Shown: positions 8,032 to 53,546 of the stretch, piece after piece
Layout of the letters: every line of letters starts with the position of its first letter
Numbering within the stretch: the first letter of the stretch is position 1
DNA from: Patescibacteria group bacterium
Lineage (GTDB): Bacteria; Patescibacteriota; JABMPQ01
Reading direction: 5' to 3'
NCBI GenBank assembly: GCA_041749335.1
Contig: JBGTBM010000010.1
Location: 221,110-285,109, forward strand
DNA length: 64,000 bases
The notes under the pieces: generated by a model
The model's input: the letters and a program-made list of their open reading frames with translations, nothing else
Databases searched by the model: none
Told to the model about the DNA's origin: nothing
Position numbers and translations under genes: made by a program

Positions 8032-9309
8032 ATGACAACAAGCAAAGAAAATTTTTCACCCCAAGAAGCTAAAGAAGAGCCGCAAGAAGGCGGAATGGAT
8101 ATATTATCTTTTCTTAAAGAGAAAAGACCGCCCCGAGAGATGAAAGAGACTTCCCCTGAACAAGTTGGATTAATTGATTCTTTAAAGAAAAAAGTTGATT
8201 CTTATAAAAATAAATTGATCGAAAGCGGCGCAAAAGAAGATGCGGTAGATTCTTTAGCTACAGAATATGCCCATGAACTAAAACAATCTCAACAAGACCC
8301 CAGAAAATATATTGATCTTGGCAATAGAACTTATGCCAACGGTAGATTAAATGAAGAAATTACGGCTCTAATTCCTGAAGATCGCGAACTAACCCTGGAT
8401 GATTTAGATCGAGTTTACCGATTGGATCACGATCTCGATGAATTTAAAACAATCAATGACTACTATGGGCATAAAGCCGGCGATGACATTTTACATACTT
8501 ATTCAGAGATATTAAAAAAGGGAGAATCGGTAGAATGGATTAAAAATACCGGGCTTCTGGTAGAAAAATCTGAAAATGAGCCACAAGCATTTGAAGCCAC
8601 CGTGGAGGGCGGAGAAGAATTCGGCGGCTTATTGGTTTTTAAAGAAGAGTTTTCCCCTTTGGAGCTTGAAGATGGTACAAAATTAAACAGTCGAGAAGAA
8701 GTAGTCCGAGAATTTGTAAAAAAAATTCAGAAAGAAACTAAAGCAAAATTTAAAGATCTCCTTGCACAAAAAGATGCTGAGGGCAATCCTAAATATCCGT
8801 TAAAGGGCAAAGTGCCCGAAGGGATTAAGTTACCTGAAGATTTTGTTGTTGAATCCGGCACTAGTTTTGGCTATGCTTCAGTGAAAGAAGCGACGGAAAA
8901 TATTGAAATTTATGAAGAAGACGACTATGATACAGTGATGCAAAAAATTAGATCACATCTATTTGAAAGAAGCGATAAAAGAGCCTACGGAGATAAACTG
9001 GAAAGAAAAATTCAAAGAGAGCAAAGCGACGATATAAATGCCAAATTAACAGCCGAAATTTCACCTCGCGGACGGGCTGAAATGTTGGAAAGAAAAAATA
9101 TAGAACTATCTGAACAAACTAAAAAAGATCAAGAAAAAATTGAAGCCGGCAATTCAGCAGTAGCTAAATTGGAAAGCCAATTGGCAGGCTTAAAATCTGC
9201 TTTTGAGTCTATTAAAGAACAGCAAGGTTATGAATTGGTGCGCGATACCTTGCTTACTCAAATAACCGCGATGGAAGCTACAATTGAAAGCTTTAAGCAA
9301 GCGGCATAA
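8032..9309 (+). CDS. GGDEF-domain protein (putative diguanylate cyclase) with low-complexity N-terminus and C-terminal coiled coil
   Basis: GNRTYANGRL...LDDLDRVYRLDHDLDEFKTINDYYGHKAGDDILHTYSEIL...ATVEGGEEFGGLLVF: the DxD-FKxxND-GHxxGD signature and an intact GGEEF active-site motif. No recognisable sensor domain. Confidence 0.6.
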   Translation: MTTSKENFSPQEAKEEPQEGGMDILSFLKEKRPPREMKETSPEQVGLIDSLKKKVDSYKNKLIESGAKEDAVDSLATEYAHELKQSQQDPRKYIDLGNRTYANGRLNEEITALIPEDRELTLDDLDRVYRLDHDLDEFKTINDYYGHKAGDDILHTYSEILKKGESVEWIKNTGLLVEKSENEPQAFEATVEGGEEFGGLLVFKEEFSPLELEDGTKLNSREEVVREFVKKIQKETKAKFKDLLAQKDAEGNPKYPLKGKVPEGIKLPEDFVVESGTSFGYASVKEATENIEIYEEDDYDTVMQKIRSHLFERSDKRAYGDKLERKIQREQSDDINAKLTAEISPRGRAEMLERKNIELSEQTKKDQEKIEAGNSAVAKLESQLAGLKSAFESIKEQQGYELVRDTLLTQITAMEATIESFKQAA

Positions 9310-11873: not shown

Positions 11874-13649
11874 ATGAAGAATATAATAGATAAAATTGAA
11901 ATCTTAAGGCATTCAACTGCTCATGTATTAGCGGCCTCAGTGCTTAAAATGTTTCCGGAGGCCAAATTTGCCATTGGCCCAGCGATAGCGGACGGTTTTT
12001 ATTATGATTTTGATCTGCCTCGCACGCTTATTCCGGAGGATTTAGCTTTGATTGAAGCAGAAATGCAAAATATCATCAATAAAAATTATCCCTTTGAAAA
12101 AGCTGTAATCAATATCGATGAAGCAATTAATCTTTTTAAAAAGGCGAAACAAGACTATAAAGTTGAAATTTTGGAAGATTTAAAAAATAAAGGAGAAAAG
12201 GAAGTATCAATTTATCAATCAGATAATTTTGTAGATCTTTGCAAGGGACCGCATTTAGATTCTACCGGAGAAATAAATAAAAAAAGCATTAAACTCATTA
12301 AAATATCCGGCGCATACTGGAAGGGTGATGAAAAAAGAAAAATGCTGCAAAGAATTTATGGGTTAGCTTTTTATACCCCCAAAGATCTGAAAAAACATCT
12401 CGCACAAATGAAAGAAGCAGAAAAAAGAGATCATCGAAAAATTGGCAAAGATCTGGATTTTTTTGTTTTCTCCGACTTGGTGGGAAAAGGCCTTCCCCTG
12501 CTAACCGAAAAAGGTTCAGTGATAAGAAGAGAGCTGGAAAGGTATATAGTTGATGAAGAAATTAAAAGAGGATATCAGCATGTATATTCTCAAGATTTAG
12601 CTAAAGTAGATTTATACCGCAAGTCCGGCCATTATCCATATTATAAAAAGACCATGTATCCTTCCATGATAGTTGACGATGAAGAATTAATACTCCGCCC
12701 AATGGCTTGTCCCCACCATTTTGAATTATACAAATCGAAATTAAGAAGTTATCGCGAATTACCTTTGCGTATCGCGGAAATTGCCAAGTTATACCGGTAT
12801 GAGAAATCCGGAGAGCTTACCGGCTTAATCAGAGTTAGGGATTTTTGCTTGGCAGATTCCCATATATTTTGCCGGGAATCACAAGCCGAGCAAGAGCTAA
12901 AGGATGTTTTACAATTAATTGATGACGTGTCCAGAACCCTAGGATTTAAAAAAAATAAAGATTATCGCTATCGCCTATCCCTGGGCAATAGAAAGGATAC
13001 CAAAAAATATTATAAAAATGATCAAGCTTGGGATAAAGCGGAAAAAATATTGAAAAAGGTTCTCATCGATCTAAAAGCGCCATTTTATGAAGAAACTGAC
13101 CAGGCGGCTTTTTACGGACCCAAAATTGATATCCAGATGAAAAATTTCGCCGGCAAGGAAGATACCGCTTTTACCGTTCAATATGATTTTTGTATGCCGG
13201 ATCGCTTTGATTTGACTTATAAAAACGAAAAAGGTAAAGACGAAAGAGCAATTGTTATCCACAGATCATCTATCGGCTCGATTGAGCGCACTATTGGGTT
13301 CTTGATTGAATATTACGCAGGTTCCTTCCCTTTGTGGCTCTCTCCTATTCAAGTAGCCGTTATACCCGTTTCCGACAAATTCATAAAGCCTGCTCAAAAT
13401 ATAATGGAAAAATTGTTTGCGGAAAAAATCCGCGTGGTAATTGATGACCGTAATGAATCTGTTGGTAAAAAAATATCCGACACTATAAAACAAAAAATTC
13501 CTTACACTATAGTTTACGGAGACAAGGAAGCTAAAAGTAAAAATTTGGCTATTAGAGTAAGAGGATCAAAAGAAATTAAGAATCAAAAATTAGAGGACTT
13601 TATTAAAAACATTAAAAATTTAATTGATAATAAAAGTTTAGATTTATAA
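11874..13649 (+). CDS. thrS: threonyl-tRNA synthetase (lacks N-terminal TGS domain)
   Basis: 591 aa; starts in the N2/editing region (RHSTAHVLAASV); class II aaRS core and C-terminal anticodon-binding domain present. Confidence 0.95.
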   Translation: MKNIIDKIEILRHSTAHVLAASVLKMFPEAKFAIGPAIADGFYYDFDLPRTLIPEDLALIEAEMQNIINKNYPFEKAVINIDEAINLFKKAKQDYKVEILEDLKNKGEKEVSIYQSDNFVDLCKGPHLDSTGEINKKSIKLIKISGAYWKGDEKRKMLQRIYGLAFYTPKDLKKHLAQMKEAEKRDHRKIGKDLDFFVFSDLVGKGLPLLTEKGSVIRRELERYIVDEEIKRGYQHVYSQDLAKVDLYRKSGHYPYYKKTMYPSMIVDDEELILRPMACPHHFELYKSKLRSYRELPLRIAEIAKLYRYEKSGELTGLIRVRDFCLADSHIFCRESQAEQELKDVLQLIDDVSRTLGFKKNKDYRYRLSLGNRKDTKKYYKNDQAWDKAEKILKKVLIDLKAPFYEETDQAAFYGPKIDIQMKNFAGKEDTAFTVQYDFCMPDRFDLTYKNEKGKDERAIVIHRSSIGSIERTIGFLIEYYAGSFPLWLSPIQVAVIPVSDKFIKPAQNIMEKLFAEKIRVVIDDRNESVGKKISDTIKQKIPYTIVYGDKEAKSKNLAIRVRGSKEIKNQKLEDFIKNIKNLIDNKSLDL

Positions 13650-13663
13650 AAAATATGGATAAC

Positions 13664-13697
13664 AAAAAAACGTCTCAAATATTCAAGGCGTTTTTTT
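13664..13697. terminator. bidirectional terminator between convergent thrS and the cupredoxin gene
   Basis: aaaaAACGTCtcaaatattcaaGGCGTTttttttt: hairpin flanked by an A-run and a T-run. Confidence 0.4.
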
Positions 13698-13706
13698 GAT
13701 AAAATA

Positions 13707-15059
13707 TTATTTTGCCGCTTCTTCGACGATAATTGATCCGACCATTCCGGATTCTTTATGACCGGGAACTGAACAATAAAATTCAAATTCACCCACTTGT
13801 TTCGGAGTATATTCGATCGAGACAGTTTCTCCTCCCTGCACTTTTATATCGATACCTAATTCATCTACAGTAAATGTATGCGCCACATCCAAACTGGTAA
13901 GTTCCAGCGTTACTCTCTGTCCATTAACAAGTTTTATAGTAGCGGGTGAATAACCAAAACTGAAAGCCTTCACTGATACGGTTTGGACCGGAATAACTGT
14001 TCCTCCATCATTATCATCGCTTCCATCTAAAATATTAGAAGATTGCTGTTGAGCCTTAGTTAAAGAAAATGTCCCGGATGAAGCAGCTGGCCAATTAGAC
14101 GGCGTACTGCCCATAACATTCCAATTGCCGTTTATTTGTTTGGTTTCATTAGAAAAAATCCCCGAAAATTCCATTTTATATTCTCGCTCCGTTGCCGATT
14201 CATTCACTCCGGCCGCAGAGTCTACTACTGAAAAATAATTAATCAGCATGGCTTTAAAATTATTACCATCCTTTTCAAAAGTAAAATATCCGGTTACCCT
14301 GGATTTATAAGTAATATTTTGTGTGCTGCCGGGGAATACCAATGTACCCGCCATTCTATTATTTTCAGTCAAATTTAGTTTAAATTCAGAAGATTTCGCT
14401 ACTTCGGAAGAAAAAGCTCCCGACCAATCGCCCACAATTATGTCTTTTTCCTCTTGTGATAGATCCTGTTCACCTAATTTGCCTGGACCGGCAGGATTAT
14501 ATCCGGAATCCACTTCAGCTTTATCACTGTAGCCATCGCCGTCAGTATCTTTTTTATTGGGATCGGATTTGTATAAAACTATTTCGTCATAATCAGTTAA
14601 GCCATCTTGATCAGAATCCTGCTTTTTTAAAAATTCCATCACCGGCAGTAAATCCTGTTTGGTAGCATAATCCTTTAATCCCGCCTCAATGGCTTCAACT
14701 TTTTGTTCAAAAGTATCGATTCCCGAAAGATTATTTTCGATCGCATCGACCTTGTCAATCAAAGTATTAATCAAATTCTGATTCTTAATTATTTCAGTAT
14801 TTTGATCTGTATTTTTACTATCAATATCCGAATAAAATATAAATCCTAACACTCCCATGCCAATAATAAATAAAAAAAGTACGGCCATAAGTATTTTGGT
14901 AAGCAATCCACCCGTGCTTGTCTTTTTAGTTTTTGGAGCAATCGCCATCGTCGGCATTTGCGGTCTTCCCGCTGCTATTCCTTGTTCCATAGCGCTCTTT
15001 TTTTGAAACGATTGATCTAATAACTTGTTTAAATTTTGATTTTGATTTGTGTTTACCAT
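13707..15059 (-). CDS. membrane-anchored surface protein with TSP3-like Ca-binding repeats and C-terminal type-1 copper (cupredoxin) domain
   Basis: TM anchor LLTKILMAVLFLFIIGMGVLGFIFY; DTDGDGYSDKAEVD repeat; C-terminal LDVAHTFTVDELG...FYCSVPGHKESGMVG supplies the His/Cys/His/Met ligand set of blue copper proteins. Confidence 0.6.
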   Translation of the reverse strand: MVNTNQNQNLNKLLDQSFQKKSAMEQGIAAGRPQMPTMAIAPKTKKTSTGGLLTKILMAVLFLFIIGMGVLGFIFYSDIDSKNTDQNTEIIKNQNLINTLIDKVDAIENNLSGIDTFEQKVEAIEAGLKDYATKQDLLPVMEFLKKQDSDQDGLTDYDEIVLYKSDPNKKDTDGDGYSDKAEVDSGYNPAGPGKLGEQDLSQEEKDIIVGDWSGAFSSEVAKSSEFKLNLTENNRMAGTLVFPGSTQNITYKSRVTGYFTFEKDGNNFKAMLINYFSVVDSAAGVNESATEREYKMEFSGIFSNETKQINGNWNVMGSTPSNWPAASSGTFSLTKAQQQSSNILDGSDDNDGGTVIPVQTVSVKAFSFGYSPATIKLVNGQRVTLELTSLDVAHTFTVDELGIDIKVQGGETVSIEYTPKQVGEFEFYCSVPGHKESGMVGSIIVEEAAK

Positions 15060-21337: not shown

Positions 21338-22270
21338 TTAATAGACTAAGATAATAAAATTTCTATCTTGTAGATTCCCTGCCCCGGTATCATGCGTATA
21401 AACCTGAACACTATTTGTATTAGAGGCATTGTTAAAGCTATAAGTGGCTAAGGTATCCGAGTCGGACATAGTAGTCCCATCTACAACGACAGAAATAAAT
21501 TTACCAGACACATTAAAACCAAAATTAACCTGATAACTTCCCGCAAGACCCGATCTCGTTATAGTTATATCGTTGGGACCAGCCGATCTTATGATCGATG
21601 GAGTTCCTTTACCATCTACCATTGCCATAGCTTTAACTGCACCATATCTCGCCCAGTGCTGTACAATATCGCCATCTAAAGATAATTTTCCTTCATTACT
21701 AACAGTTAAACCGCCTCCTCCGGTATTTTTACCAATCTCAAGCTCGTCTCCAATAATTTTTGCTCCCGGAACCCATAAAATATCTGCGAGACCGGCATTA
21801 ATATTCCCTTTATTATCAATAGTAAGTGTCACTCCCTTAGAAGGATTTTCCATAAGTAATTTTCCACTTACTTGGACATCTTTTGTCCACACTTCATTCC
21901 ATCTATGCAAAGAATCACCAAAATTATTGATATTAGTTAAGGTGGGAATTATATGATCTGAAATTTTCAGAGGATTATCTCCTCCTTTTTCTGACCGCCA
22001 AATTTCTCCATCGATTCTCACGTCATCTCCAAATGTAACCGGATCGTCGCTGTTATTTACAATTGTTCCATTAAAAAAGGTTACGCCGCCAATTCCCGGT
22101 TCGCCAATATAGGCAGAGTTTGCATAAATAGTGCCATTTACGTCTAAACTTTCATTATAGGTAATCGTTGATGCCGGCTGAAGGACATCAGCATCTGACG
22201 CTGCAGCTACTGCGGAAAACACAAAAACACCCAGCACAATTGCCAGTGTTCCCAGAAGTTTAATTTTCAT
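21338..22270 (-). CDS. secreted surface protein, paralog 1 of a three-member family (conserved N-terminal domain, divergent C-terminus)
   Basis: Signal peptide MKIKLLGTLAIVLGVFVFSAVAAA; N-terminal block LQPASTITYNE..GIGGVTFFNGTIVNN..DGEIWRSEKGGDNPLKISD..PT.TN shared with ORFs 22390..23367 and 36855..38012. Confidence 0.6.
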   Translation of the reverse strand: MKIKLLGTLAIVLGVFVFSAVAAASDADVLQPASTITYNESLDVNGTIYANSAYIGEPGIGGVTFFNGTIVNNSDDPVTFGDDVRIDGEIWRSEKGGDNPLKISDHIIPTLTNINNFGDSLHRWNEVWTKDVQVSGKLLMENPSKGVTLTIDNKGNINAGLADILWVPGAKIIGDELEIGKNTGGGGLTVSNEGKLSLDGDIVQHWARYGAVKAMAMVDGKGTPSIIRSAGPNDITITRSGLAGSYQVNFGFNVSGKFISVVVDGTTMSDSDTLATYSFNNASNTNSVQVYTHDTGAGNLQDRNFIILVY

Positions 22271-22309
22271 TTGTTTTTTATTTATTGTTTTTTTTAACTA
22301 ATTTATTAT

Positions 22310-22339
22310 ATTTTACCCCCCCCCGACTACTTCTGTCAA
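22310..22339 (-). promoter_or_regulatory. promoter of paralog 1 with a G9 (C9 on + strand) homopolymer in the -35/-10 spacer
   Basis: Sense strand: TTGACA gaagtagtc GGGGGGGGG TAAAAT (18-nt spacer); C-run at 22316-22324. Confidence 0.5.
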
Positions 22340-22348
22340 GACGAGATA

Positions 22349-22378
22349 AGAAAAAAGCACCTCCGGAGAGAAGTGCTT
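22349..22378 (-). terminator. rho-independent terminator downstream of paralog 2
   Basis: Sense strand AAGCACttctctccggagGTGCTT then tttttt. Confidence 0.5.
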
Positions 22379-22389
22379 TAAAATTTAAT

Positions 22390-23367
22390 CTAATAGACCG
22401 TTAACATAAATGACGAATCAATATTAGGAATTGTTGTTCCATTATCATCATATACAAATACATCAATTCCTTGAGCACCATTTATCGCTGTTGATATATC
22501 AGTCGGACTAACTCTTATTGGGGTTACTTGCCAATATCTATCATTTATATCAAATGCAAAATCAATAGTATAAACACCCGCTGGGTTTCCATCTTTTCTC
22601 TTACATGTTACTGAAGTATTATTAAATGTCCATGGTCTATTGCACAATCCATTAGATCCGACCATTACTAAGGCCTTAATAGCACCAGATGAATTTCTTG
22701 CTTGATATATATCTCCCTGAACGCCTAAATATGTTCCTACGTTTACATTTTTATCAACCGATATTCCTTCCTTAAACTCAACATTACTATTAAATATTGA
22801 ATTGTTTCCTACTCTTAACTGCCCATAACTATTTATTGTTACACCGCCTTGACTAAATCCTCCCGCAACATTAATGTTTTCAAAATCTGTCACCCCACTT
22901 ACATTTAAATCATTAAAGTTTGCCATCCCACTTATATTTATATCGTTAAAGTTCACATCTCCATTAAAATCAGCATTTTTAGCATACAACTTATTCCATC
23001 TATTTGCAGATGATCCAAAATCATTAGTATTTGTAATGGTCGGAATAACGTTATCAGAAATCTTTATTGGATCTCCACCCTTTACGCCTCTCCATATCTC
23101 TCCGTCCACTCTCATATCATCTGCAACAGTAAATGGATCTGTTGCCCCTTCATTTAGCACTGAACCATTAAAGAAAGTTACGCCACCCAATCCGGCCGTC
23201 CCTACTCTCAAAGAATCTGTATTTAAAGAGCCATTAATGTCTACATTTTCGTTGTAGATAATGTCTGATGCCGGTTGCAAAGTTGTAACATCTGACGCTG
23301 CAACGACTCCCGCGCAGAGGAATACTCCCAAAATAATAGTAAGCATTCCCGTTAGTTTTGTTTTCAT
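22390..23367 (-). CDS. secreted surface protein, paralog 2
   Basis: Signal peptide MKTKLTGMLTIILGVFLCAGVVAA; same N-terminal block as paralog 1; C-terminal half unrelated, rich in NFND/N-x-S/T motifs. Confidence 0.6.
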   Translation of the reverse strand: MKTKLTGMLTIILGVFLCAGVVAASDVTTLQPASDIIYNENVDINGSLNTDSLRVGTAGLGGVTFFNGSVLNEGATDPFTVADDMRVDGEIWRGVKGGDPIKISDNVIPTITNTNDFGSSANRWNKLYAKNADFNGDVNFNDINISGMANFNDLNVSGVTDFENINVAGGFSQGGVTINSYGQLRVGNNSIFNSNVEFKEGISVDKNVNVGTYLGVQGDIYQARNSSGAIKALVMVGSNGLCNRPWTFNNTSVTCKRKDGNPAGVYTIDFAFDINDRYWQVTPIRVSPTDISTAINGAQGIDVFVYDDNGTTIPNIDSSFMLTVY

Positions 23368-27726: not shown

Positions 27727-30700
27727 ATGAAAACACATTATCGTAAAGACAAATTTCGCTTTCCCCAATATTTTCTTAATAAAGAATTTCCAATTTTTAT
27801 TAAGGTTGTGGCAATTCTGATTATTTTGGCCATTATTCTTTTTATTATTGATACCATCGGATTAACCTATAAACCACAAATAGAAATTGATGCCTATACG
27901 GTTAAACACGATATTGATCCTAATTTATATGGATATAGTATCGATTCTAATTTTACTTATAACCAAAACCTAGTAGGCGCCATCAACCAATACGGCGCGC
28001 AATCTATGAGAATTATGGATGAATATGAGCCGGGAGCGCGTATGCTTTTAAAGATTAATAATGGAGCAAGCTATGTTTTAGCTGCCGACAATGTCCCCTA
28101 TGAGCCCAACCGCAATTACCAAGTTAAAATTCAGGTTAATGAAAGCAATATTAAGCTTTGGATAGACGGCAAACAAATTTTTAGTGTTAACGATTCAACC
28201 TACAAAAATGGTGAAATTGGCTTAACCTCAAGCTTTAATCTTAATTCTTATTTTGATAATGTTGTAGTTCGCAATAATGAGAGTAATATCCTTTTTTCTG
28301 ATAATTTTTCCCGCGGCTTCGATAAATGGGAAAACGGCAATATTCCCGGCTTTTATCAACAAGGCGACTGGCTGCTTGACGATGACAGCTTAAAACACGA
28401 AGGCCAGCAGTCTATTACGCTAAAAAAGGCCGGAGATAATAATTGGAGAAATTATACTATCACCGCCGACTTAAAATCGTCAACGCAAAATATTTATGAG
28501 GCTGGGTTTATTGGCATTGTGTTTCGTTATAATGGAATACTGAACAATTATAAATTTTTATGGCGCTCCGGCTTACGACAACCCTTCTCATCTAATAATC
28601 CTTGGGAAATTGCGGACTATGACGGCCAATTCCGCTTTCTCCAAGAAACAAATTTAAAGCCTAATATGGTCATTAATATGCGCGACGATTCCGTCCAATC
28701 AGCCGCTGATTTGGTGCACGAATTAAATATTGAAAAAAAATTAGGAATAAAATATTGGGAGCTCGGCAATGAAATATGGCTGTGGAGCGACTCTTACATC
28801 CACAACGACCAATATGCTCAAAAAGTAAAAAATTATTCCCGAGCCATGAAAGCGGTAGATCCCAGCATAAAAATCGGCGCCACTCTGCTTTTGGGATTTT
28901 CAGACTGGGATAATTTAGTAATTCGCGAAACTGCTCCTTATATTGATTTTATTGTTTTTCATTTTTATCCCTACTACGTTCAAAGCAATATTTCAGATTA
29001 TCATATATTGGGCGCTCCCTATGCGTTCGGCAATAATTTTAAGAATAATAATGGACAAGGCAAGGGTATTGTAGAAAATGCTAAAGATTTAATCAGGAAA
29101 GAGGCGCCAGGGCATGAAAACAGAATTGAATTTGCAGTAACTGAATATAACACCGGAGACTATGATCAAGGAATTGATCTTATTTACGGCTTGGCAGTCG
29201 CAGATCTTTTAGGCGAAGCGGCTAAGCAGGACATTAAACTTATGCAATTTCATAAGCTAGCCAACGAAACCGCCTGGCATTGGGGAGCTTTTACCGAAGA
29301 TTATCGAGCTAAACCGTCTGCGCTGGCGATCTCAATGTACACAAAACACTTCGGCGATAAAATGTTAGATGCCAAAGTAAAAAATACTCCCACCTTTTAC
29401 GTCCCAGAAAAAATTAATGTGCCGGCAATTTCTAATATACCGTACTTGTCGGTTCATGTTAGCCGCAGCAAAGATGATAAAAAATTATATTTGATGGTAA
29501 TTAATAAGCACGCGGCCGCCGATATGCAAACAACTATAAATATTGCCAACGCTAATATTTCCGCGCAGGCAAAAGCCTATACTTTAAACGGACCCTCCAT
29601 CCATTCCGATAATAATTATGCCGATAATGTAGCCATATCGGAGAAAACAATTAATAATGCCAATTCAAAATTTATCTATAATTTTCCGGCTCATTCCGTA
29701 ACCGCGATTGAATTTAATATTGAAAATTTAATTAAGCCCAAAGTACAAACAGCTATAACTGTCCCAAAAAGCGAAATTAAAAATACGCCCGCTACTCCTG
29801 ATATCGGAGGACCATCAGATAATTCTATTCAGACATCTAAAATTGCCGCTTCCGCCGGTTTGGGCGGAAATCCCCATATAAAAACTTTTGACTCTCTGGG
29901 TAATCAATCTCAAGGTAACTTTTTTGCCTATGATCAAAATTTTAAAGGCGGGGTTTCAATAGCTTTATGCGACTTTGAAGGCGATGGAAAAAATGAAGTG
30001 ATAACCGGCGCGGGAGCGGGCGGCGGGCCGCATCTCAGAGCTTTCCGCGAAGACGGAAGAGAAATCGCCAACTTCTTTCCCTTTGATCCGAATTTCCGCG
30101 GCGGTATTGATGTCGCTTGCGGCGATATAGATAAAGACGGGCGCGATGAAATCGTAACTTCTCAAAATTCCCAAGGCCAAGCCTGGATTAAGGTATATCG
30201 CTACGACACGCGAAAAAGTATCATTGGAGAATGGAATGCTTTTGGGCATGTGGAATGTGGCGCGTCTGTGGCAATGGGAGATGTAGACGGAGACGGCACA
30301 GATGAAGTGATTGTTGGAGCGGGAGCAGGAGGCGGGCCACATATTAGAATTTATGAAGCTGACGGCACTCTAAAGCCATTAGAGTTTTTTGCCTTTCATC
30401 CGAACTACCGCGGTGGTATTTCGGTTGCTGCCGGCGATGCGGATGGAGACGGCCAAGATGAAATTGGCGTATCTCAATCCGGTTATGGCGATCAATCCTG
30501 GACCAAGGTATACAAATACAATAACGAGCATTCGGTCTTAGGCGAATGGAAAGCTTACGGCGATGCGATCTTAAGCGCGCATATTGCCATGGGAGATATT
30601 GACGGCGATGGGCGCGCAGAAGTAGTTACTGGAACGGGCTTGGGCGGAGAACCGCTGGTGCTAACTTTTAATGCTTATGGACAAATTAAGCCGGTTAGTT

Positions 30701-30756
30701 TTTACGTATTTGATCGAGCCTTTGTTGGCGGAATTGAAGTAGATGTTAAAAAATAA
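27727..30756 (+). CDS. membrane-anchored surface protein: two ConA-like jelly-roll domains + clan GH-A glycoside hydrolase TIM barrel + FG-GAP/VCBS beta-propeller repeats
   Basis: 1009 aa; N-terminal TM FPIFIKVVAILIILAIILFIID; DUF1080/LamG-like blocks; catalytic-looking IKYWELGNEIW (acid/base NE) and FAVTEYNTGD (nucleophile E); five repeats of the type CDFEGDGKNEVITGAGAGGGPHLRAF and MGDVDGDGTDEVIVGAGAGGGPHIRIY. Confidence 0.7.
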   Translation: MKTHYRKDKFRFPQYFLNKEFPIFIKVVAILIILAIILFIIDTIGLTYKPQIEIDAYTVKHDIDPNLYGYSIDSNFTYNQNLVGAINQYGAQSMRIMDEYEPGARMLLKINNGASYVLAADNVPYEPNRNYQVKIQVNESNIKLWIDGKQIFSVNDSTYKNGEIGLTSSFNLNSYFDNVVVRNNESNILFSDNFSRGFDKWENGNIPGFYQQGDWLLDDDSLKHEGQQSITLKKAGDNNWRNYTITADLKSSTQNIYEAGFIGIVFRYNGILNNYKFLWRSGLRQPFSSNNPWEIADYDGQFRFLQETNLKPNMVINMRDDSVQSAADLVHELNIEKKLGIKYWELGNEIWLWSDSYIHNDQYAQKVKNYSRAMKAVDPSIKIGATLLLGFSDWDNLVIRETAPYIDFIVFHFYPYYVQSNISDYHILGAPYAFGNNFKNNNGQGKGIVENAKDLIRKEAPGHENRIEFAVTEYNTGDYDQGIDLIYGLAVADLLGEAAKQDIKLMQFHKLANETAWHWGAFTEDYRAKPSALAISMYTKHFGDKMLDAKVKNTPTFYVPEKINVPAISNIPYLSVHVSRSKDDKKLYLMVINKHAAADMQTTINIANANISAQAKAYTLNGPSIHSDNNYADNVAISEKTINNANSKFIYNFPAHSVTAIEFNIENLIKPKVQTAITVPKSEIKNTPATPDIGGPSDNSIQTSKIAASAGLGGNPHIKTFDSLGNQSQGNFFAYDQNFKGGVSIALCDFEGDGKNEVITGAGAGGGPHLRAFREDGREIANFFPFDPNFRGGIDVACGDIDKDGRDEIVTSQNSQGQAWIKVYRYDTRKSIIGEWNAFGHVECGASVAMGDVDGDGTDEVIVGAGAGGGPHIRIYEADGTLKPLEFFAFHPNYRGGISVAAGDADGDGQDEIGVSQSGYGDQSWTKVYKYNNEHSVLGEWKAYGDAILSAHIAMGDIDGDGRAEVVTGTGLGGEPLVLTFNAYGQIKPVSFYVFDRAFVGGIEVDVKK

Positions 30757-46698: not shown

Positions 46699-48780
46699 TT
46701 AGATATCAAGATTTTTGACATCTTTGGCTCGGCTTTGAATAAACCGGCGGCGCGGTTCCACTTCCGCTCCCATTAGAGTATCAAAAGTTTTATCAGCCTT
46801 TTGCGCTTCTTCTATCTTCACTTGCAGCATAACTCGATTTTCCGGATTCATGGTGGTTTCCCAAAGCTGCGCCGGATTCATTTCTCCCAAACCCTTATAC
46901 CTTTGAATATTTATTTTTGCTCCGCTCTTTACTTCTTTCTTAAATGTTTCCATAATCTCGTTTTTATCCTCTTCGGTGTAGGCATATTGCATCTCTTTGC
47001 CTACTTTAATGCTATACAAAGGCGGTTGAGCGATATATAAATGACCGTCTTCCACCAGCTTTTCAAAATAACGGAAAAATAATGTTAAAAGCAAAGTGCG
47101 GATATGCGCTCCATCAACGTCGGCATCGGTCATAATTATTACGCGATTATAGCGCAGTTTTGTAAGATCCATTTCCTCTCCCACTCCCATGCCCAGAGCG
47201 ATAATCAAAGACTTTATTTCTTTGGAAGATAAAACTTTGTCCAAACGAGCTCTTTCAATATTTAAAATTTTGCCGCGTAAAGGGAATATCGCTTGAAAAC
47301 CACGGTCGCGTCCGCCCTTGGCAGAACCGCCGGCCGAATCTCCCTCCACAATAAAGATCTCGCATTTTTCCGCTTCCTTGGATGAACAATCTGCCAATTT
47401 TCCCGGCAAAGTAAGGCCATCCAGCGCACCCTTTCTGATGACTGTTTCTTTTGCGGCCTTCGCAGCCTTTCTCGCTTTTTGGGCCAGCAGCGTTTTTCCA
47501 ATCATTTGGCGAGCGTCCTGGGGATGTTCCTCCAGAAATTCCGTAAAAGCATCATGCATCAAAGATTGCACTACTGTTCGAACTTCGGCGTTGCCTAATT
47601 TGGCTTTGGTTTGGCCTTCAAATTGTGGATTTCTTAATTTGATGGAAATAATAACCGTTAAACCTTCCCGCACATCGTCTCCGGTCAGATTTTCTTCCTT
47701 GCCCTTAATGTAATCATTTTTACGAGCATAATCATTGATTACACGCGTTAAGGCCGATTTAAATCCCATTAAATGTGTTCCGCCTTCCGGAGTATAAATA
47801 TTATTAGCAAAACTTATCTCAAATCCTTTTATTTCATCGGTATATTGCATCGCGATTTCAACCATAATATCATCCGCTTCCCGCTCCATATAAAAAGGCG
47901 TTTCATGGATAAGATTTTCACCATCATTCAAATGTTTAAGATATGAAACAATTCCTCCGTCAAAATAAAAAGTGAGAATTCTGGGAAATTTTCCCGGCTT
48001 GTCTTCAATTTCTCTTTCATCAATTACTTTTACTCTGACATTTTTGGTTAAATAAGCCTGCTGCCTAATATGGTCGATTATTTTTTTCCAGGAAAATTCA
48101 ATTTTATCAAAAATTTCAGGATCAGGCTCAAAAGTAATAGTTGTGCCTGTTTCCTGCGATCTTTCCCCTTTCTTTACTTTGGTTTTGGGTTTTCCTTTAG
48201 CATATTCCTGCTCAAATTCATAGCCATCTCTTTTCACTTCCGCTTTTAAATAAGAAGATAAAGCGTTAACCACCGAAACACCGACGCCATGTAAGCCGCC
48301 GGCTACCTTATAGCCTACCCCATCAAATTTACCACCGGCGTGTAAAGTCGTAAGGACTGTTTCCAACGCCGATTTTTTCGTTACGCTATGCTTTTCCACC
48401 GGAATACCACGTCCATTATCGCTTACAGTCACGCTGCTATCTTTATGAATAATCACTTCAATATTATTGCAATATCCGGCCATTGCTTCATCGATGGAAT
48501 TATCAACCACTTCCCAGATCAGGTGATGCAGGCCGTCCAAACTGGTACCCCCGATATACATTCCCGGTCTTTTTCTAACCGGATCCAAACCTTCCAGTAC
48601 TGTGATATCTTTGGCAGTATAGGAACCTTCAACTCTGGTGGTCTGTTTTAAGGATAAATTACCCCCGGCTACTATTTTTTTGCCAGCAGCGGGTTTTTTC
48701 CCGGAAGTGTTAATTTTTTTTGCATTTTTGGTATTCTTTTTAGGATTTTCTTTCTTTTTGGAGTTTTTCTTCTTTGGCAT
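46699..48780 (-). CDS. gyrB: DNA gyrase subunit B with about 48-aa lysine-rich N-terminal extension
   Basis: 693 aa; conserved start of the GHKL domain YTAKDITVLEGLDPVRKRPGMYIGGT is preceded by MPKKKNSKKKENPKKNTKNAKKINTSGKKPAAGKK...; Toprim and C-terminal tail present. Confidence 0.95.
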   Translation of the reverse strand: MPKKKNSKKKENPKKNTKNAKKINTSGKKPAAGKKIVAGGNLSLKQTTRVEGSYTAKDITVLEGLDPVRKRPGMYIGGTSLDGLHHLIWEVVDNSIDEAMAGYCNNIEVIIHKDSSVTVSDNGRGIPVEKHSVTKKSALETVLTTLHAGGKFDGVGYKVAGGLHGVGVSVVNALSSYLKAEVKRDGYEFEQEYAKGKPKTKVKKGERSQETGTTITFEPDPEIFDKIEFSWKKIIDHIRQQAYLTKNVRVKVIDEREIEDKPGKFPRILTFYFDGGIVSYLKHLNDGENLIHETPFYMEREADDIMVEIAMQYTDEIKGFEISFANNIYTPEGGTHLMGFKSALTRVINDYARKNDYIKGKEENLTGDDVREGLTVIISIKLRNPQFEGQTKAKLGNAEVRTVVQSLMHDAFTEFLEEHPQDARQMIGKTLLAQKARKAAKAAKETVIRKGALDGLTLPGKLADCSSKEAEKCEIFIVEGDSAGGSAKGGRDRGFQAIFPLRGKILNIERARLDKVLSSKEIKSLIIALGMGVGEEMDLTKLRYNRVIIMTDADVDGAHIRTLLLTLFFRYFEKLVEDGHLYIAQPPLYSIKVGKEMQYAYTEEDKNEIMETFKKEVKSGAKINIQRYKGLGEMNPAQLWETTMNPENRVMLQVKIEEAQKADKTFDTLMGAEVEPRRRFIQSRAKDVKNLDI

Positions 48781-48972
48781 GGTATTTTTAGCTTATTTAA
48801 GGTAAATAATTACAAATATTCGGTATTTGCATATGGTAAAAATATACCATAATCACAATATTATATCAACAATAAAAAAGTGAATTTTACTTGACGGTTT
48901 ATATTAATTCTGTTAATATATTAAATTCTAAATATAGAATGATCTTTAAAAAAGAATGTGAAGGAGAAGCTC

Positions 48973-49911
48973 ATGGAAAAGGCAAGATTGATACTGGTAA
49001 CACACAAGAAACCTGACCTAGATGCAGTCGCATCTCTCTTTTTGTGGCTGATGGCGCATCGGATTCCGTGGGACAGCGGCGAGGATATTTACAAAATGAA
49101 GTTCGTCAATCCGGGTCAAAGGTTAGAGGTTCCCCCCGAAGGAGAAAATATTCGGATTATCCACTTTGATACCGGAAGAATGCATGATGATTACAACTAT
49201 GATCACCATCAGCTAGGGTCGCGTGCGATCTCCGCTACCGGCCTGGTCTGGCAGCGATTCTTCAAACCGGGTGAAAATCCGGCGATCGACGAAATGGTCG
49301 CCGTTATCAATCATTCCGATAACGGTCTTAGATATCATACCGAAGATTTGGGAGCGAGAAATTTATTCGCCTTTGGCTTTATTCTCAGCGGAATTAATAA
49401 GTTTGATCCCCGCGGATCAGACTTCAGCCATACCATGATTACGGGTTTTAGCATGTTGGACGGCTATTTGGCTAACTGCGAAGAAGTGCAAGTCCTCAAT
49501 AATATTACTAACAATATGCCGATTTTCCAAACTTCACTGGGGCAAACCATCGCCCTAGACAATGTGCCGGGGGATTCCTCGGCTATCCGCAGCTATTTGA
49601 AAAAATATTACAACGGCACAAGGGGGCCCTTGGTCAATACCTGCGTGGTAAAATTCTCGGAAGGGTCAATCGGAGTAATTGTCTGCATTGATCCCGGAGA
49701 GGAACAGGATCTTAACGAAGATGCAGGCAATGACAATTACCCCGAAGCAATTTCATTATTTGGAGAAATGAAACGCATTTATAATGAGTTAAAGGATTTG
49801 GATTCCAGTCAAGGCAGTAACATTTACCTTCATTATTCCGGCTTCGCTCTTTACATAAACCGTTCGCAAAAAATAGCCTTGGCGGATGTGCTAAGGCTAA
49901 TCGCAATATAA
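48973..49911 (+). CDS. DHH-superfamily phosphoesterase-like protein (GC-rich, probably horizontally acquired)
   Basis: DHH motifs: LVTHKKPDLDAVAS (I), IHFDTG (II), YDHH (III). Start chosen at ATG 48973 after SD AAGGAG (48961-48966); the track ORF begins at GTG 48958. Local GC about 45-60% versus about 34% for the window. Confidence 0.5.
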   Translation: MEKARLILVTHKKPDLDAVASLFLWLMAHRIPWDSGEDIYKMKFVNPGQRLEVPPEGENIRIIHFDTGRMHDDYNYDHHQLGSRAISATGLVWQRFFKPGENPAIDEMVAVINHSDNGLRYHTEDLGARNLFAFGFILSGINKFDPRGSDFSHTMITGFSMLDGYLANCEEVQVLNNITNNMPIFQTSLGQTIALDNVPGDSSAIRSYLKKYYNGTRGPLVNTCVVKFSEGSIGVIVCIDPGEEQDLNEDAGNDNYPEAISLFGEMKRIYNELKDLDSSQGSNIYLHYSGFALYINRSQKIALADVLRLIAI

Positions 49912-49975
49912 TAATAGGTAGAAATTATTATGAGTTTTCACAAAGACACTAACAAAAGTGTCTTTTTTTTATTAT

Positions 49976-52345
49976 TTAATCGCGCAATTTGGCATCAAAT
50001 CTCTGGAGAATTTTATCTACCACGCGCTGATGAATGTTTTTAACTTCTTTATCTGCCAAAGTTTTATCATCAGAGCGATATTCTAAATGGTAAGCCAGGC
50101 TTTTTTTATTGGCTCCCAGATTTTTACCCACGTAGATATCGAATAATTCCGCACTTCGTAAAAGCGGCCGGCCGGCCTGAATCAGTTCCTGCTCAATTTC
50201 CTGGGCTTTGATTTTTTGGTCAAAAACAAAAGCAACATCCAACATAACCGGAGGATATTTTGGCAGAGGATTATATTTTATATCACGATTGGCTAATTCA
50301 GTTATTTTATTAAGCGATAAATTGAAAAAGGCGATTTCTTTATTTTTGATATTAAAATTTTTCACTACCCGCTGATCAGTTAAAGCCAAGGTGCCTAGCA
50401 GCTCTTCTCCCGCTTTGTACTGCAGGCATTTTCCTTCGGCATACATATTAAAATATTCACAATTCACTTCTTTTTTTAAGGCCATAGTCTGATAATCAAT
50501 ATTTAATTTTTTTAATAAAATATTGATTATGCCTTTGGCTTGATAAAATATTTTTTCATTATCACCCAATAGCGCGGCCGACACGGACTGGCACTCGCAC
50601 TCTTCAAAATAAACATGCCCCATTTCAAAAATCTTTATTTCAGCGATATTTTTAATATTTTTTTCAACCAGATTAAATAAATATGGCAGCAATGAGGTCC
50701 GCAAATATTTAAGCTCCTGGGATATAGGATTTTCCAACTCAATATGATCCCGCGGAGTTAATAAGCACTTGCCCAGCAGCCGCTCGCCATAAAAAGAATA
50801 GTTCATAACTTCGCTCATACCCAGACCCACTAAAATATTTTCAATATGATTTCTCCAATAGATATCACGATCCTGTTCCACCGGTTTAATCGCCCCGGAA
50901 AGATCAATGGGCTTAATATTGCCATAACCGTAAATTCTGGCCACCTCCTCTATCAAATCTTCCTCAATGCCGATATCCATACGATATAAGGGAACTGTTA
51001 CTTTAAATTTTTTACTTCCCACCACCTTAAAATTCAAATTTTGTAAAATCTTTTTAACTTTTTCGGGCTTAATTTCATGGCCGATATATTGATTCAGCTT
51101 ATCAATATCTAAGGTTAACTTCTGTTCTTTTGGCTTCGCTATTTGAGTATCGTAAACCCCGCCGGATAATTCCGCTCCAGCGTATTTAATTAATAATTGT
51201 ATTGCCCTGTTTATGCCCAATTCAGCCAGATATGGACTCAATCCCTTTTCAAATCTAGTTAAAGCTTCAGTCCGCAAAGATAATCTCTGAGCGGTTTTTC
51301 TGACATTAAACGAATTGAAATTAGCCGACTCTAAAATAATTTTTTTGGAATTCTGATCAATTTGAGTTTCTCGCCCGCCCATAATGCCGGCAATGGCGAT
51401 CGCTTTTTGGCCATCCGCTATCACCAGATCACTACCGGATAAGACCCTTGGTTTTTCGTCTATGGTATTTATCTGCTCTTTATTTTTAGCCAATCTCACT
51501 ATAATTTCCTTTTTATCGCCGGATATTTTATCGTAATCGAAAGCATGCAGGGGCTGTCCAAATTCCAACAAAACATAATTGGTTATATCAACAATATTAT
51601 TGATCGGCCTAATCCCGCAAGCTCTCAATCTAGATTGCATCCATTCAGGGGAGTCGGTAATTTTAATATGGCCTAAAACTGCTGCCAGATAGCGCGGACA
51701 TAAAGTTTTGTTTTTTATTTTAATCTTTAAGCTGTCCTTTTTAATTTTTTGTTTAATGTTAGCAACATTGGGAAGGTTTATTTTTAAATTTAATATCGCC
51801 GCCAATTCTCGAGCAATGCCAATATGCCCAAATAAATCCGAACGGTGCGTTAATGATTTATTATCAATTTCCAAAATTTCATCTTCCTCCAAACCAAGAT
51901 GGCGGCCAAAATCCATGCCGATTTTTGCTTGCGTATCCAGTACCATAATTCCCTGTGATTCAGCCTTGAGCCCCAGCTCCTGCTCCGAACAAATCATACC
52001 CTCGGAAATAACTCCCCGAATTTCCGCTTTTTTAATTTTCAAGCCATTCGGCAGCTGCGCGCCGATAACGGCAACCGGAACTTTTTGCCCTTGTTCTAAA
52101 TTATCCGCTCCGCAGACAACGTTTAATATTTTATTTCCAACATCAACTTTTGCGATCGATAAGCGATCGGCATTGGGATGCTTCTCTTTTTTTACAACCT
52201 GCCCAACTACAACTCCGGATAAATTATTATTTATTTTTTCTATGCCTTCCACTTCCGCAATTCCCATAGTAAGCGCATCGGCAATCTCCGTAGAAGTTTT
52301 ATTTATTTTAATATAGTCCGATAGCCAATTTAGAGATATTTTCAT
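49976..52345 (-). CDS. pheT: phenylalanyl-tRNA synthetase beta subunit
   Basis: 789 aa; tRNA-binding, B3/B4, B5 and C-terminal ferredoxin-like domains in canonical order. Confidence 0.95.
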   Translation of the reverse strand: MKISLNWLSDYIKINKTSTEIADALTMGIAEVEGIEKINNNLSGVVVGQVVKKEKHPNADRLSIAKVDVGNKILNVVCGADNLEQGQKVPVAVIGAQLPNGLKIKKAEIRGVISEGMICSEQELGLKAESQGIMVLDTQAKIGMDFGRHLGLEEDEILEIDNKSLTHRSDLFGHIGIARELAAILNLKINLPNVANIKQKIKKDSLKIKIKNKTLCPRYLAAVLGHIKITDSPEWMQSRLRACGIRPINNIVDITNYVLLEFGQPLHAFDYDKISGDKKEIIVRLAKNKEQINTIDEKPRVLSGSDLVIADGQKAIAIAGIMGGRETQIDQNSKKIILESANFNSFNVRKTAQRLSLRTEALTRFEKGLSPYLAELGINRAIQLLIKYAGAELSGGVYDTQIAKPKEQKLTLDIDKLNQYIGHEIKPEKVKKILQNLNFKVVGSKKFKVTVPLYRMDIGIEEDLIEEVARIYGYGNIKPIDLSGAIKPVEQDRDIYWRNHIENILVGLGMSEVMNYSFYGERLLGKCLLTPRDHIELENPISQELKYLRTSLLPYLFNLVEKNIKNIAEIKIFEMGHVYFEECECQSVSAALLGDNEKIFYQAKGIINILLKKLNIDYQTMALKKEVNCEYFNMYAEGKCLQYKAGEELLGTLALTDQRVVKNFNIKNKEIAFFNLSLNKITELANRDIKYNPLPKYPPVMLDVAFVFDQKIKAQEIEQELIQAGRPLLRSAELFDIYVGKNLGANKKSLAYHLEYRSDDKTLADKEVKNIHQRVVDKILQRFDAKLRD

Positions 52346-52351
52346 ATTATA

Positions 52352-52627
52352 TTAACTTAGTATTTTCTTTAAATTATCGATTGCTCCGCCGTTATAAACG
52401 CCCTCAATTCCCTGTAATTTTAAAATTTCTACCGCCTCCCCGCTGCGCACACCGCTATGGCAGTATAAAATAATTGGCTTTTTCATGCGCTCAAATTCAT
52501 CAATTTGATAAATTATATCAGCAAGTGGAATATTAATTGCCCGATTAAGATGATCACTCGCGTATTCCGCTTCAGTTCTCACATCGACCAAGGTGGCCTC
52601 ATTCAGATTTATATCCGCAATTTCCAT
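52352..52627 (-). CDS. single-domain rhodanese-like sulfurtransferase
   Basis: 91 aa; active-site loop YCHSGVRS. Confidence 0.8.
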   Translation of the reverse strand: MEIADINLNEATLVDVRTEAEYASDHLNRAINIPLADIIYQIDEFERMKKPIILYCHSGVRSGEAVEILKLQGIEGVYNGGAIDNLKKILS

Positions 52628-52628
52628 A

Positions 52629-53546
52629 TTATTTTTGTATTCTCGCTAAATATTTAGCAGCCTTAATCAAAGCGATGCATCCCTGGCCGGCGGAAATAAT
52701 ATATTGATATTCATGAACATTGGCAACATCACCGGCTGCAAAAACGCCCGGGACTGAAGTTTGAGTTTGGCAATCGACGATAATATGTTGATGCTTATTT
52801 AGTTCCAATAAATCTTTTACGATCTCAACATTGGGCGTTCTTCCAATTTCAATAAATACGCCATCAACCGCTAAATTATTTTCTTGCTTATTTTTCAAAT
52901 ATGTAATGCCGCTAACAAATTTCTCGCCGGTAATGCCGATAGTTTCCGCCTTATTAATTACTTCAACATTTTTCATCCCTGCCAACCTATCCACTAAATA
53001 TTGAAATGCGGTAAACTGCTCTTCAATATTAATCACAAATATTTTTTGGGCAATATCCTTCATAAAATCCACCGACTCCAAGGCTGAATTACCTCCACCG
53101 ATTATCGCCACTTTTTTCTGGGTATAAAGCGGGCCATCGCAAATGGCGCAATAATGCACGCCCTTGTTAGCAAATTCCGCTTCACCCGGCACATTTAATT
53201 TTTTGGGGCTGGATCCGGTAGCCACAATTACGGTATAGGTGGAATAACTTCCCTTATCCGTTTTTACTGCAAACATTTTCCCCGATTTTTTTACTTGCTC
53301 CACTTTTTCGCCTTCATTAATACTAAAACCATTAAACTCTACCTGCTTTTTTAAAATTGATCTTAACTCTCCGCCCGTGGTTGTGATAATCCCGGGATAA
53401 TTCAAAACCTCTCCGGAAATATTCATCTGACCGCCAAATTCTTCCGCGATTACCAGGAAATTCATTTTTTTTCTCGCAGCATATATTCCAGCGGTAATTC
53501 CCGCAATTCCCGCACCGATTATAATTGTCTCGTAGGGCTTTTGCAT
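52629..53546 (-). CDS. trxB: thioredoxin reductase (low-Mr type)
   Basis: 305 aa; FAD motif IIIGAGIAGITAGIYAA; redox-active CAICDG; NADPH motif. Confidence 0.9.
   Translation of the reverse strand: MQKPYETIIIGAGIAGITAGIYAARKKMNFLVIAEEFGGQMNISGEVLNYPGIITTTGGELRSILKKQVEFNGFSINEGEKVEQVKKSGKMFAVKTDKGSYSTYTVIVATGSSPKKLNVPGEAEFANKGVHYCAICDGPLYTQKKVAIIGGGNSALESVDFMKDIAQKIFVINIEEQFTAFQYLVDRLAGMKNVEVINKAETIGITGEKFVSGITYLKNKQENNLAVDGVFIEIGRTPNVEIVKDLLELNKHQHIIVDCQTQTSVPGVFAAGDVANVHEYQYIISAGQGCIALIKAAKYLARIQK

Follow-up and report, generated by a model that had tools for sequence, protein, structure and literature searches.

A MYG1-like DHH-superfamily gene with raised third-position GC content in an old slot between pheT and gyrB of a patescibacterium

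The 64,000 nt stretch of DNA analysed here, hereafter called the window, is part of contig JBGTBM010000010.1 (positions 221,110 to 285,109, assembly GCA_041749335.1) of a Patescibacteria group bacterium, and the gene in question, hereafter called gene X, is found on its plus strand at 48973-49911, between gyrB and pheT. The gene encodes a protein of 312 amino acids (N-terminus MEKARLILVTH), described below as a MYG1-like member of the DHH superfamily of phosphoesterases. It is the only gene on the plus strand from 36855 to 62277, as was already recognised in an initial annotation made from the sequence alone, in which X was described as a lone plus-strand gene in a run of minus-strand genes and as a probable horizontal acquisition from a donor of higher GC content. 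The list of open reading frames (ORFs) contains a version of X which is five codons longer (48958-49911, plus strand, 317 amino acids) and begins with GTG. The GTG at 48958 had been adopted as the start in that annotation, but the ATG at 48973 is most likely the true start, since the orthologous sequences align from there and a start at 48958 would place the Shine-Dalgarno (SD) sequence inside the coding sequence.

The SD sequence, AAGGAG, is read at 48961-48966 (plus strand), 6 nt before the ATG. It had been described as a good SD of a kind rare in this DNA, and GGAG or GAGG within 22 nt 5' of the start was indeed found for only two of 55 genes in the window, X and the gene at 11874-13649. 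The leaders of the other genes are A/T-rich, and translation initiation appears to be independent of an SD in most genes of this organism. Among the relatives of X, an SD is present 5' of the called start in loci L001, L003, L085, L087 and L089 and in two distant homologues, and in L090 no SD precedes the called start, which is probably mis-called. A consensus scan identified a sigma-70-type promoter at 48891-48919 (plus strand; TTGACG, a 17-nt spacer and TAATAT, with a TG upstream). In an alignment of the upstream regions the promoter blocks CTTGAC and T(T/G)TTA(A/G)TAT were kept in six lineages, over which the region 5' of X had a mean identity of 75 %, and in five of them an SD stands before the called start. 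The same alignment contains a leader element at 48937-48951 (plus strand), 3' of the -10 box and 5' of the SD, which reads GAATGATCTTTAAAA in the window and is a perfect palindrome, AAAGATCTTT, in L001, L003 and L089, and which may be regarded as a candidate operator. Downstream of X, a hairpin (AAAGACAC...GTGTCTTT) followed by a T-run was found with a terminator scan at 49942-49975, between the convergent X and pheT. The same stem is kept in L003 and L089, and the hairpin is probably a bidirectional terminator. An Rfam scan of 48500-50300 gave nothing above the gathering score.

The profile for DHH (PF01368) in Pfam matched X with 13.2 bits (E = 0.11) over residues 12-40 only, below its gathering threshold of 28.1. 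The MYG1_exonuc profile (PF03690, gathering threshold 22.1 bits) gave no match to X at E <= 1 and scored 17.2 bits with the close orthologue P0006. Neither an NCBIfam scan of X nor a single-sequence search of PDB with X returned a match. A k-mer search of 5.8 billion clusters yielded four proteins, the window's own included, and an exhaustive hidden Markov model search of 1.84 billion representatives yielded four matches at E <= 1e-30, all of them clade orthologues (P0003, P0005, P0006 and P0007), and 115 at E <= 1e-3. All named distant homologues come from Patescibacteria.

All four motifs of the DHH superfamily are present in X, namely motif I (DxD, D15 and D17), motif II (D66), motif III (DHH, D77-H78-H79) and motif IV (D116, in DNG), and the other key residues are H11, R206 and H287, the last within LHYSGF. 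In alignments of 17 and of 80 sequences H11, D15, D17, D66, D77, H79, D116 and H287 were at least 90 % conserved, as was H78 in the set of 17. Motifs I-III without a GGGH motif had been noted initially, and this description holds, with motif IV as an addition. The canonical DHHA1 motif GGGH is not found in the X sequence because X has a different C-terminal motif, LHxSGF, with an invariant histidine (H287).

When the profile built from the 80 sequences was compared with PDB, the solved structures of MYG1 exonuclease were matched with E = 2.6e-8 over profile positions 61-255, with the motifs DxGG...DHHQ, SA.L(V/I), D.DNG and (F/L)H.SGF in register, and the classical DHH enzymes were matched weakly. 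Sub-threshold or weak Pfam hits among the 80 extended-family members were to DHH in 45, to ChrB_C (PF09828) in 31 (best E = 6.7e-8, none in X itself) and to MYG1_exonuc in 11. An AlphaFold2 model of X made from a deep alignment had a predicted local distance difference test score (pLDDT) of 92.4 and a predicted template modelling score (pTM) of 0.88; a model from a 4-sequence alignment, with pLDDT 50, was discarded. The retained model has the two-domain DHH-type fold, in which residues 88-179 form a long helical insertion that separates motifs III/IV from the linker, and its top eight Foldseek matches in PDB were all DHH proteins. The global template modelling scores (TM-scores) of these comparisons were low, 0.23-0.28, so that either the arrangement of the domains or the insertions must differ. 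From the motifs, the MYG1 profile match, the structure model and the Foldseek matches, X is a two-domain DHH-superfamily phosphoesterase nearest to MYG1/UPF0160.

MYG1/UPF0160 proteins (PF03690), which are both eukaryotic and bacterial, have the same two-domain DHH-type architecture as X. The motifs common to the X family and MYG1 are hDxGG...(F/Y)DHHQ, SA.GL(V/I), D.DNG and the C-terminal (F/L)H.SGF, and H287 of X aligns to His344 of MYG1. X differs from MYG1 in having a canonical DHH motif I (H..PDxDA), which stays unaligned, as the profile alignment starts at position 61. The motif I of MYG1 itself differs from the canonical one. The protein is also shorter than MYG1, and its own clade is limited to a small group of Patescibacteria. 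MYG1 is a 3'-5' RNA exonuclease with a catalytic DHH motif, and a role in substrate selectivity has been discussed for its conserved C-terminal His344 (Grover et al. 2019, PMC6582341). The classical DHH/DHHA1 enzymes (NrnA, GdpP/Pde2, TM1595, PggH, RecJ and family II pyrophosphatase) resemble X in having motifs I-IV, and two-metal phosphoester hydrolysis would be expected of X by analogy with them, but X differs from them in its lack of GGGH, its helical insertion and the low global TM-scores. PDB entry 6mtz, an uncharacterised structural-genomics protein of Helicobacter pylori G27, has 14 % identity to X and provides no mechanistic information. By analogy with characterised enzymes, the activity of X would most likely be that of a 3'-5' exoribonuclease or a nanoRNase-type hydrolase of short oligonucleotides.

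The organism is a poorly sampled member of the Patescibacteria, since its best pheT match among GTDB representative genomes, from Candidatus Kerfeldbacteria, has only 41 % identity. Besides the window, seven loci from about six other lineages contain orthologues of X (L001, L002, L003, L085/L086, L087, L089 and L090/L091). The slot and orientation of X are identical in all seven, X being convergent with pheT and, wherever the contig extends far enough, divergent from gyrB; in L001, L089 and L090/L091 it lies between gyrB and pheT. Since L089 and L090 were located through pheT and not through X, the conserved gene order is free of ascertainment bias. L084 was considered as a sister strain and set aside, as it is 100 % identical over 15.6 kb and represents the same genome. 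No relative was obtained when GTDB genomes were scanned with the X alignment, and a metagenome scan gave a single remote match (L088, 33 % identity over 111 amino acids), which was not used.

In three Kerfeldbacteria-like outgroups (L004, L005 and L008) the gene order is tm-pheS-pheT-gyrB-secE-nusG-rplK-rplA, with a gap of 69-419 bp between pheT and gyrB and without X, and in the nearer outgroup L092 (pheT identity 53 %) a DUF456 ORF is found at the pheT-gyrB junction, again without X. X is thus missing only from outgroups with a pheT identity of 53 % or less, and its slot and promoter are kept in lineages down to 60 %. Neither an integrase nor a transposase gene adjoins X, which has gyrB and pheT as its neighbours; no search aimed at direct repeats was made at the borders. 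Since the same slot and orientation are found in all orthologue loci and the outgroup pheT-gyrB junctions are without X, the gene is, judged from gene order, an old lineage-specific insertion ancestral to a small subclade, and no recent foreign arrival. In the comparison of presence and absence in relatives, which had been suggested in the initial annotation, X is an insertion relative to the pheS-pheT-gyrB-secE-nusG array of distant outgroups, but it is found in the same slot in all seven orthologue loci.

Other variable features were observed in the same array. Genes encoding rhodanese and a thioredoxin-reductase-like protein are found between pheS and pheT in the window (52352-53546), L001, L089 and L090 and are missing in L004, L005, L008 and L092, making this pair a second lineage-specific insertion in the array in the same subclade as X. 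In L090 only, an ORF of 915 amino acids without a Pfam match (12278-15025) is located between gyrB and secE. GyrB (46699-48780) is extended at its N-terminus by a Lys-rich segment of about 45 residues (MPKKKNSKKKENPKK...), the length of which is variable among relatives, and the nucleotide identity between L001 and L089 drops locally to 63-65 % at this extension.

The whole-gene GC content of X is 45.2 %, compared with a window mean of 36.8 %, 40.8 % for gyrB and 37.7 % for pheT, and the contrast is smaller than that estimated initially (about 50 % for X, about 34 % for the surroundings and 30-38 % for the flanking genes). The 60-nt segments at 49021 and 49201, for which 58 % and 63 % had been given, have measured GC contents of 58.3 % and 63.3 %, values reached by 11 and 3 of 1066 segments, respectively. 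The GC content at third codon positions (GC3) of X is 0.509, the highest among 53 ORFs with a mean of 0.357 and a standard deviation of 0.050, and thus about 3 standard deviations above the mean, while the GC contents at first and second positions are ordinary. Against an amino-acid-matched binomial expectation, in which the amino acids of X were retained and codon usage was taken from the other genes of the window, the GC3 of X had z = 5.5, the other genes ranging from -5.1 to +3.5. The codons enriched in X end in C (GTC, ACC, ATC, CCC, CTC and TCC), whereas GCG and CTG, to which a shift had been reported, show no enrichment (0.26 vs 0.26 and 0.14 vs 0.13). The dinucleotide signature of X is ordinary (delta* 0.093 vs 0.084 ± 0.026), as 32 % of equal-length segments deviate more. 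The status of X as a compositional outlier is therefore upheld for GC3, but the deviation is smaller than had been claimed and does not extend to the dinucleotides. Along the gene, GC3 falls from 0.533 over codons 1-240 to 0.397 over codons 241-313 (Fisher p = 0.046).

Two causes of the high GC3 were considered and rejected. Head-on, lagging-strand orientation is not a sufficient cause, as the other plus-strand genes have GC3 values of only 0.28-0.43, and translational selection of the kind seen in highly expressed genes is not supported by rplK and rplA, with GC3 values of 0.31-0.34. As regards strand composition in general, G exceeds C at third positions in minus-strand genes (0.208 vs 0.151) and C exceeds G in plus-strand genes (0.199 vs 0.138), the minus strand being G-rich over the entire 64 kb independently of gene orientation. 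This is consistent with the window being part of one replichore with the minus strand leading.

The GC3 of X is raised in its relatives as well. Compared with the locus mean, it was 0.389 vs 0.290 in L090, 0.318 vs 0.297 in L089 and 0.289 vs about 0.27 in L001. Compared with the pheT tail it was 0.319 vs 0.266 in L003 and 0.417 vs 0.376 in L085, and in the short flanks of L002 and L087 the comparison was 0.421 vs 0.163 (49 codons) and 0.491 vs 0.229 (48 codons), respectively. The amino-acid-matched GC3 rank of X was 1 of 53 in the window and 1 of 12, 1 of 12 and 3 of 20 in the long orthologue loci. Distant homologues with about 21-25 % identity, found in the L093 and L096 loci of other Patescibacteria, ranked 1 of 5 and 1 of 7 by GC3 excess. 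These two X-like genes are also lone opposite-strand genes with a strong SD, divergent from a FemAB-RuvA run, with ruvA adjacent in L096 and a peptidase U32 gene in between in L093. With the distant homologues included, the GC3 of X was above the flank or locus mean in all ten loci examined.

If the GC3 of X were simply the upper tail of ordinary gene-to-gene heterogeneity, with no special cause, a wide spread of values would be anticipated, and the z-scores in the window are indeed widely dispersed (-5.1 to +3.5), X is only about +3 by the between-gene standard deviation, and a GC-richer stretch of 954 nt exists elsewhere in the window. A first or near-first rank in each of six loci from different genomes would be very unlikely by chance, however, and this explanation is considered improbable. 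The recurrence among orthologues, and again in the two distant homologues, instead suggests that the GC3 excess is best read as a trait of the family rather than the footprint of a donor, with a size that varies and is largest in the window.

The same data bear on the recent acquisition of X from a distant donor of higher GC content, as first proposed. The top GC3 of the window, the opposite strand together with an SD in an SD-poor genome and the absence of X from the pheT-gyrB junction of the Kerfeldbacteria-like outgroups would all agree with such an event. Against it stand the slot, orientation and promoter shared by lineages down to 60 % pheT identity, the native-like dinucleotide signature, the empty GTDB genome scan for close protein relatives and the restriction of the matches at E <= 1e-30 to four clade orthologues among 1.84 billion representatives, the named distant homologues being patescibacterial. 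As X is ancestral to its subclade and the composition bias travels with the family, a distant donor was rejected and is regarded as very improbable. What the initial annotation had itself named as evidence against a donor, orthologues at the same position with similar composition, is largely what was found, with orthologues in the same slot in seven loci and a recurrent GC3 excess, the size of which varies.

The history of the X coding sequence differs from that of its slot. The identities of pheT (84 %), gyrB (93 %), trxB (87 %), CarS (86 %) and nusG (97 %), which mark L001 and L089 as close sisters, contrast with 51 % for the X protein, and the X proteins of these two loci are no closer to each other than either is to X of the window. 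At the nucleotide level, the flanks of L001 and L089 are 80-92 % identical, with 90 % in the X promoter, identity drops to 35-65 % exactly in the coding sequence and it recovers directly after it. Between L003 and L089, which are related more closely still, the pheT tail is 90 % identical at the amino acid level and the first approximately 850 nt of X are 50-70 % identical, but from about nt 1075 of L003 the last 120 nt are 95-98 % identical. The breakpoint inside X thus sits just after the LH.S.F motif, and the terminator and pheT beyond it are mostly at least 90 % identical. Silent sites gave the same picture, as four-fold sites at identical amino acids differed between L003 and L089 at 39 of 75 positions in X vs 9 of 71 in the adjacent pheT (Fisher p = 4.5e-7), and between L001 and L089 at 37 of 62 in X vs 276 of 654 in the flanks (p = 0.01).

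As the source of the L001/L089 divergence, rapid protein evolution and positive selection were both rejected, given the synonymous excess and the low ratio of nonsynonymous to synonymous substitution rates (dN/dS) of 0.048 for X between L002 and L090, a pair in which the histories of gene and flank agree and in which X evolves more slowly than the pheT tail. From the incongruence of X and its flanks, the synonymous excess and the mappable breakpoint, seen in the L001/L089 and L003/L089 comparisons, the X coding sequence has demonstrably been replaced between lineages of this clade by homologous recombination with deeply diverged alleles. Five allele lineages (the window, L001, L089, L090/L002 and L003) are about equidistant, with 51-62 % identity.

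Such replacement suggests the possibility that the slot is ancestral but that approximately codons 1-240 of X in the window were recently recombined in from a related Patescibacterium of higher GC content, the high GC3 being the composition of the donor before amelioration. The cassette-like replacement of X demonstrated among relatives fits with this, as does the GC3 excess of the window, which is the largest seen (+0.15), and the step in GC3 at codon 240/241 weakly echoes the L003/L089 breakpoint. GC-rich X alleles also exist elsewhere, with 0.49 in L087 and 0.42 in L002 and L085. However, neither a donor nor a near-identical allele is known, the nearest X being 60 % identical, and a sliding-window mosaic search of the window X against the other alleles revealed no closely identical segment. 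Random imports would not yield an excess in all ten loci, and all sampled host flanks are AT-richer than their X, so that none of the host populations seen so far is richer in GC. The excess of C over G at third positions of X is as in native plus-strand genes, which is weakly informative because all orthologues have the same orientation. An import of this kind is possible, but rather doubtful.

The reading of X as a MYG1-like gene in an old fixed slot, with recombining alleles and a family-wide GC3 excess, is the best explanation of the data taken together and is regarded, with moderate confidence, as probable. X would then belong to a rare, Patescibacteria-restricted branch nearest MYG1/UPF0160, the members of which would be metal-dependent. 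Two metal ions would be held by the DxD, D, DHH and D residues of the N-terminal domain and the substrate would be bound by the DHHA1-like C-terminal domain with the LHxSGF histidine. The gene would be transcribed head-on as an independent unit, for which conserved promoter, leader, SD and terminator sequences are all present. It would have entered the pheT-gyrB junction when the subclade arose from its ancestor and has been retained in this slot since. Its coding sequence, as shown in the relatives, is swapped repeatedly for diverged alleles of related lineages, and purifying selection on it is strong. The raised GC3 might result from GC-biased gene conversion (gBGC) at a recombination hotspot, a unifying but speculative idea, or from selection on codon choice, and in the window it may have been amplified if the allele was imported from a relative richer in GC. 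A hypothesis of gBGC in bacteria has been proposed (PMC4450053).

Several points weigh against this explanation. X falls below every curated family threshold, the function of X and of all its family members is assigned by analogy, and its context gives no functional clue, since Padloc found no defence-system match for X or six relatives and a viral-contig scan found nothing. In L001 and L089 the GC3 of X is only slightly raised (z about 1.2), so that a family-intrinsic bias alone is insufficient for the +0.15 of the window. Recombination was demonstrated among relatives (L001/L089 and L003/L089) and not for the allele of the window itself. The data are metagenome contigs, some of them short, and an assembly chimera is a possible origin of the L003 pattern, although sequence shared at the L003 breakpoint would be needed for a chimera to form there; the L001/L089 contrast comes from long contigs (47 kb and 12 kb), in which the flanks agree to either side of X.

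Elsewhere in the window, the GGDEF protein mentioned in the initial annotation was found at 8032-9309 (plus strand, 425 amino acids). Its GGDEF-domain match is partial (32.8 bits, profile positions 33-68 of 161), a GG[DE]EF motif is found at residue 192 and its GC3 is very low, 0.275. The suggested link of X to this protein, which is encoded 40 kb away, received no support. The gene at 27727-30756 (plus strand) encodes an FG-GAP repeat protein of 1009 amino acids, and its 3' part, approximately 29786-30739, is the GC-richest 954 nt of the window (48.4 %). Two adjacent genes without a Pfam match at 21338-23367 (minus strand; 310 and 325 amino acids) are the strongest low-GC3 outliers (z = -3.6 and -5.1), and no other part of the window deviates as much in its dinucleotide signature. 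By composition alone, they are better candidates than X for foreign or unusual DNA.

In itself, X is a hypothetical DHH/MYG1-like enzyme of an uncultured bacterium and represents no major surprise. Its analysis indicates that status as a GC or codon-usage outlier is an unreliable sign of recent foreign acquisition, having been overturned here by synteny and family-wide composition. The relatives of X provide a clean, mappable case of homologous allele replacement in Patescibacteria, in which recombination is poorly characterised, with the exchange limited to a single gene of a housekeeping array. A further-reaching proposal, which is unlikely, is that X represents an undescribed, Patescibacteria-specific clade of MYG1-like nucleases acting as an exchangeable cassette, with a fixed slot in which promoter, operator-like palindrome, SD and terminator are kept while deeply diverged alleles would circulate among related ultrasmall bacteria. 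Selection would then be balancing or frequency-dependent, as might arise from conflict with phages or the host cell, and the GC3 excess would be a footprint of gBGC at a recombination hotspot of an AT-rich, reduced genome. The interest of X would be greater if the cassette or the gBGC reading were true. The X family is very rare, and its combination of an SD, in a genome with hardly any others, and a GC3 excess that recurs could make it useful for testing gBGC, or special control of translation, in reduced genomes.

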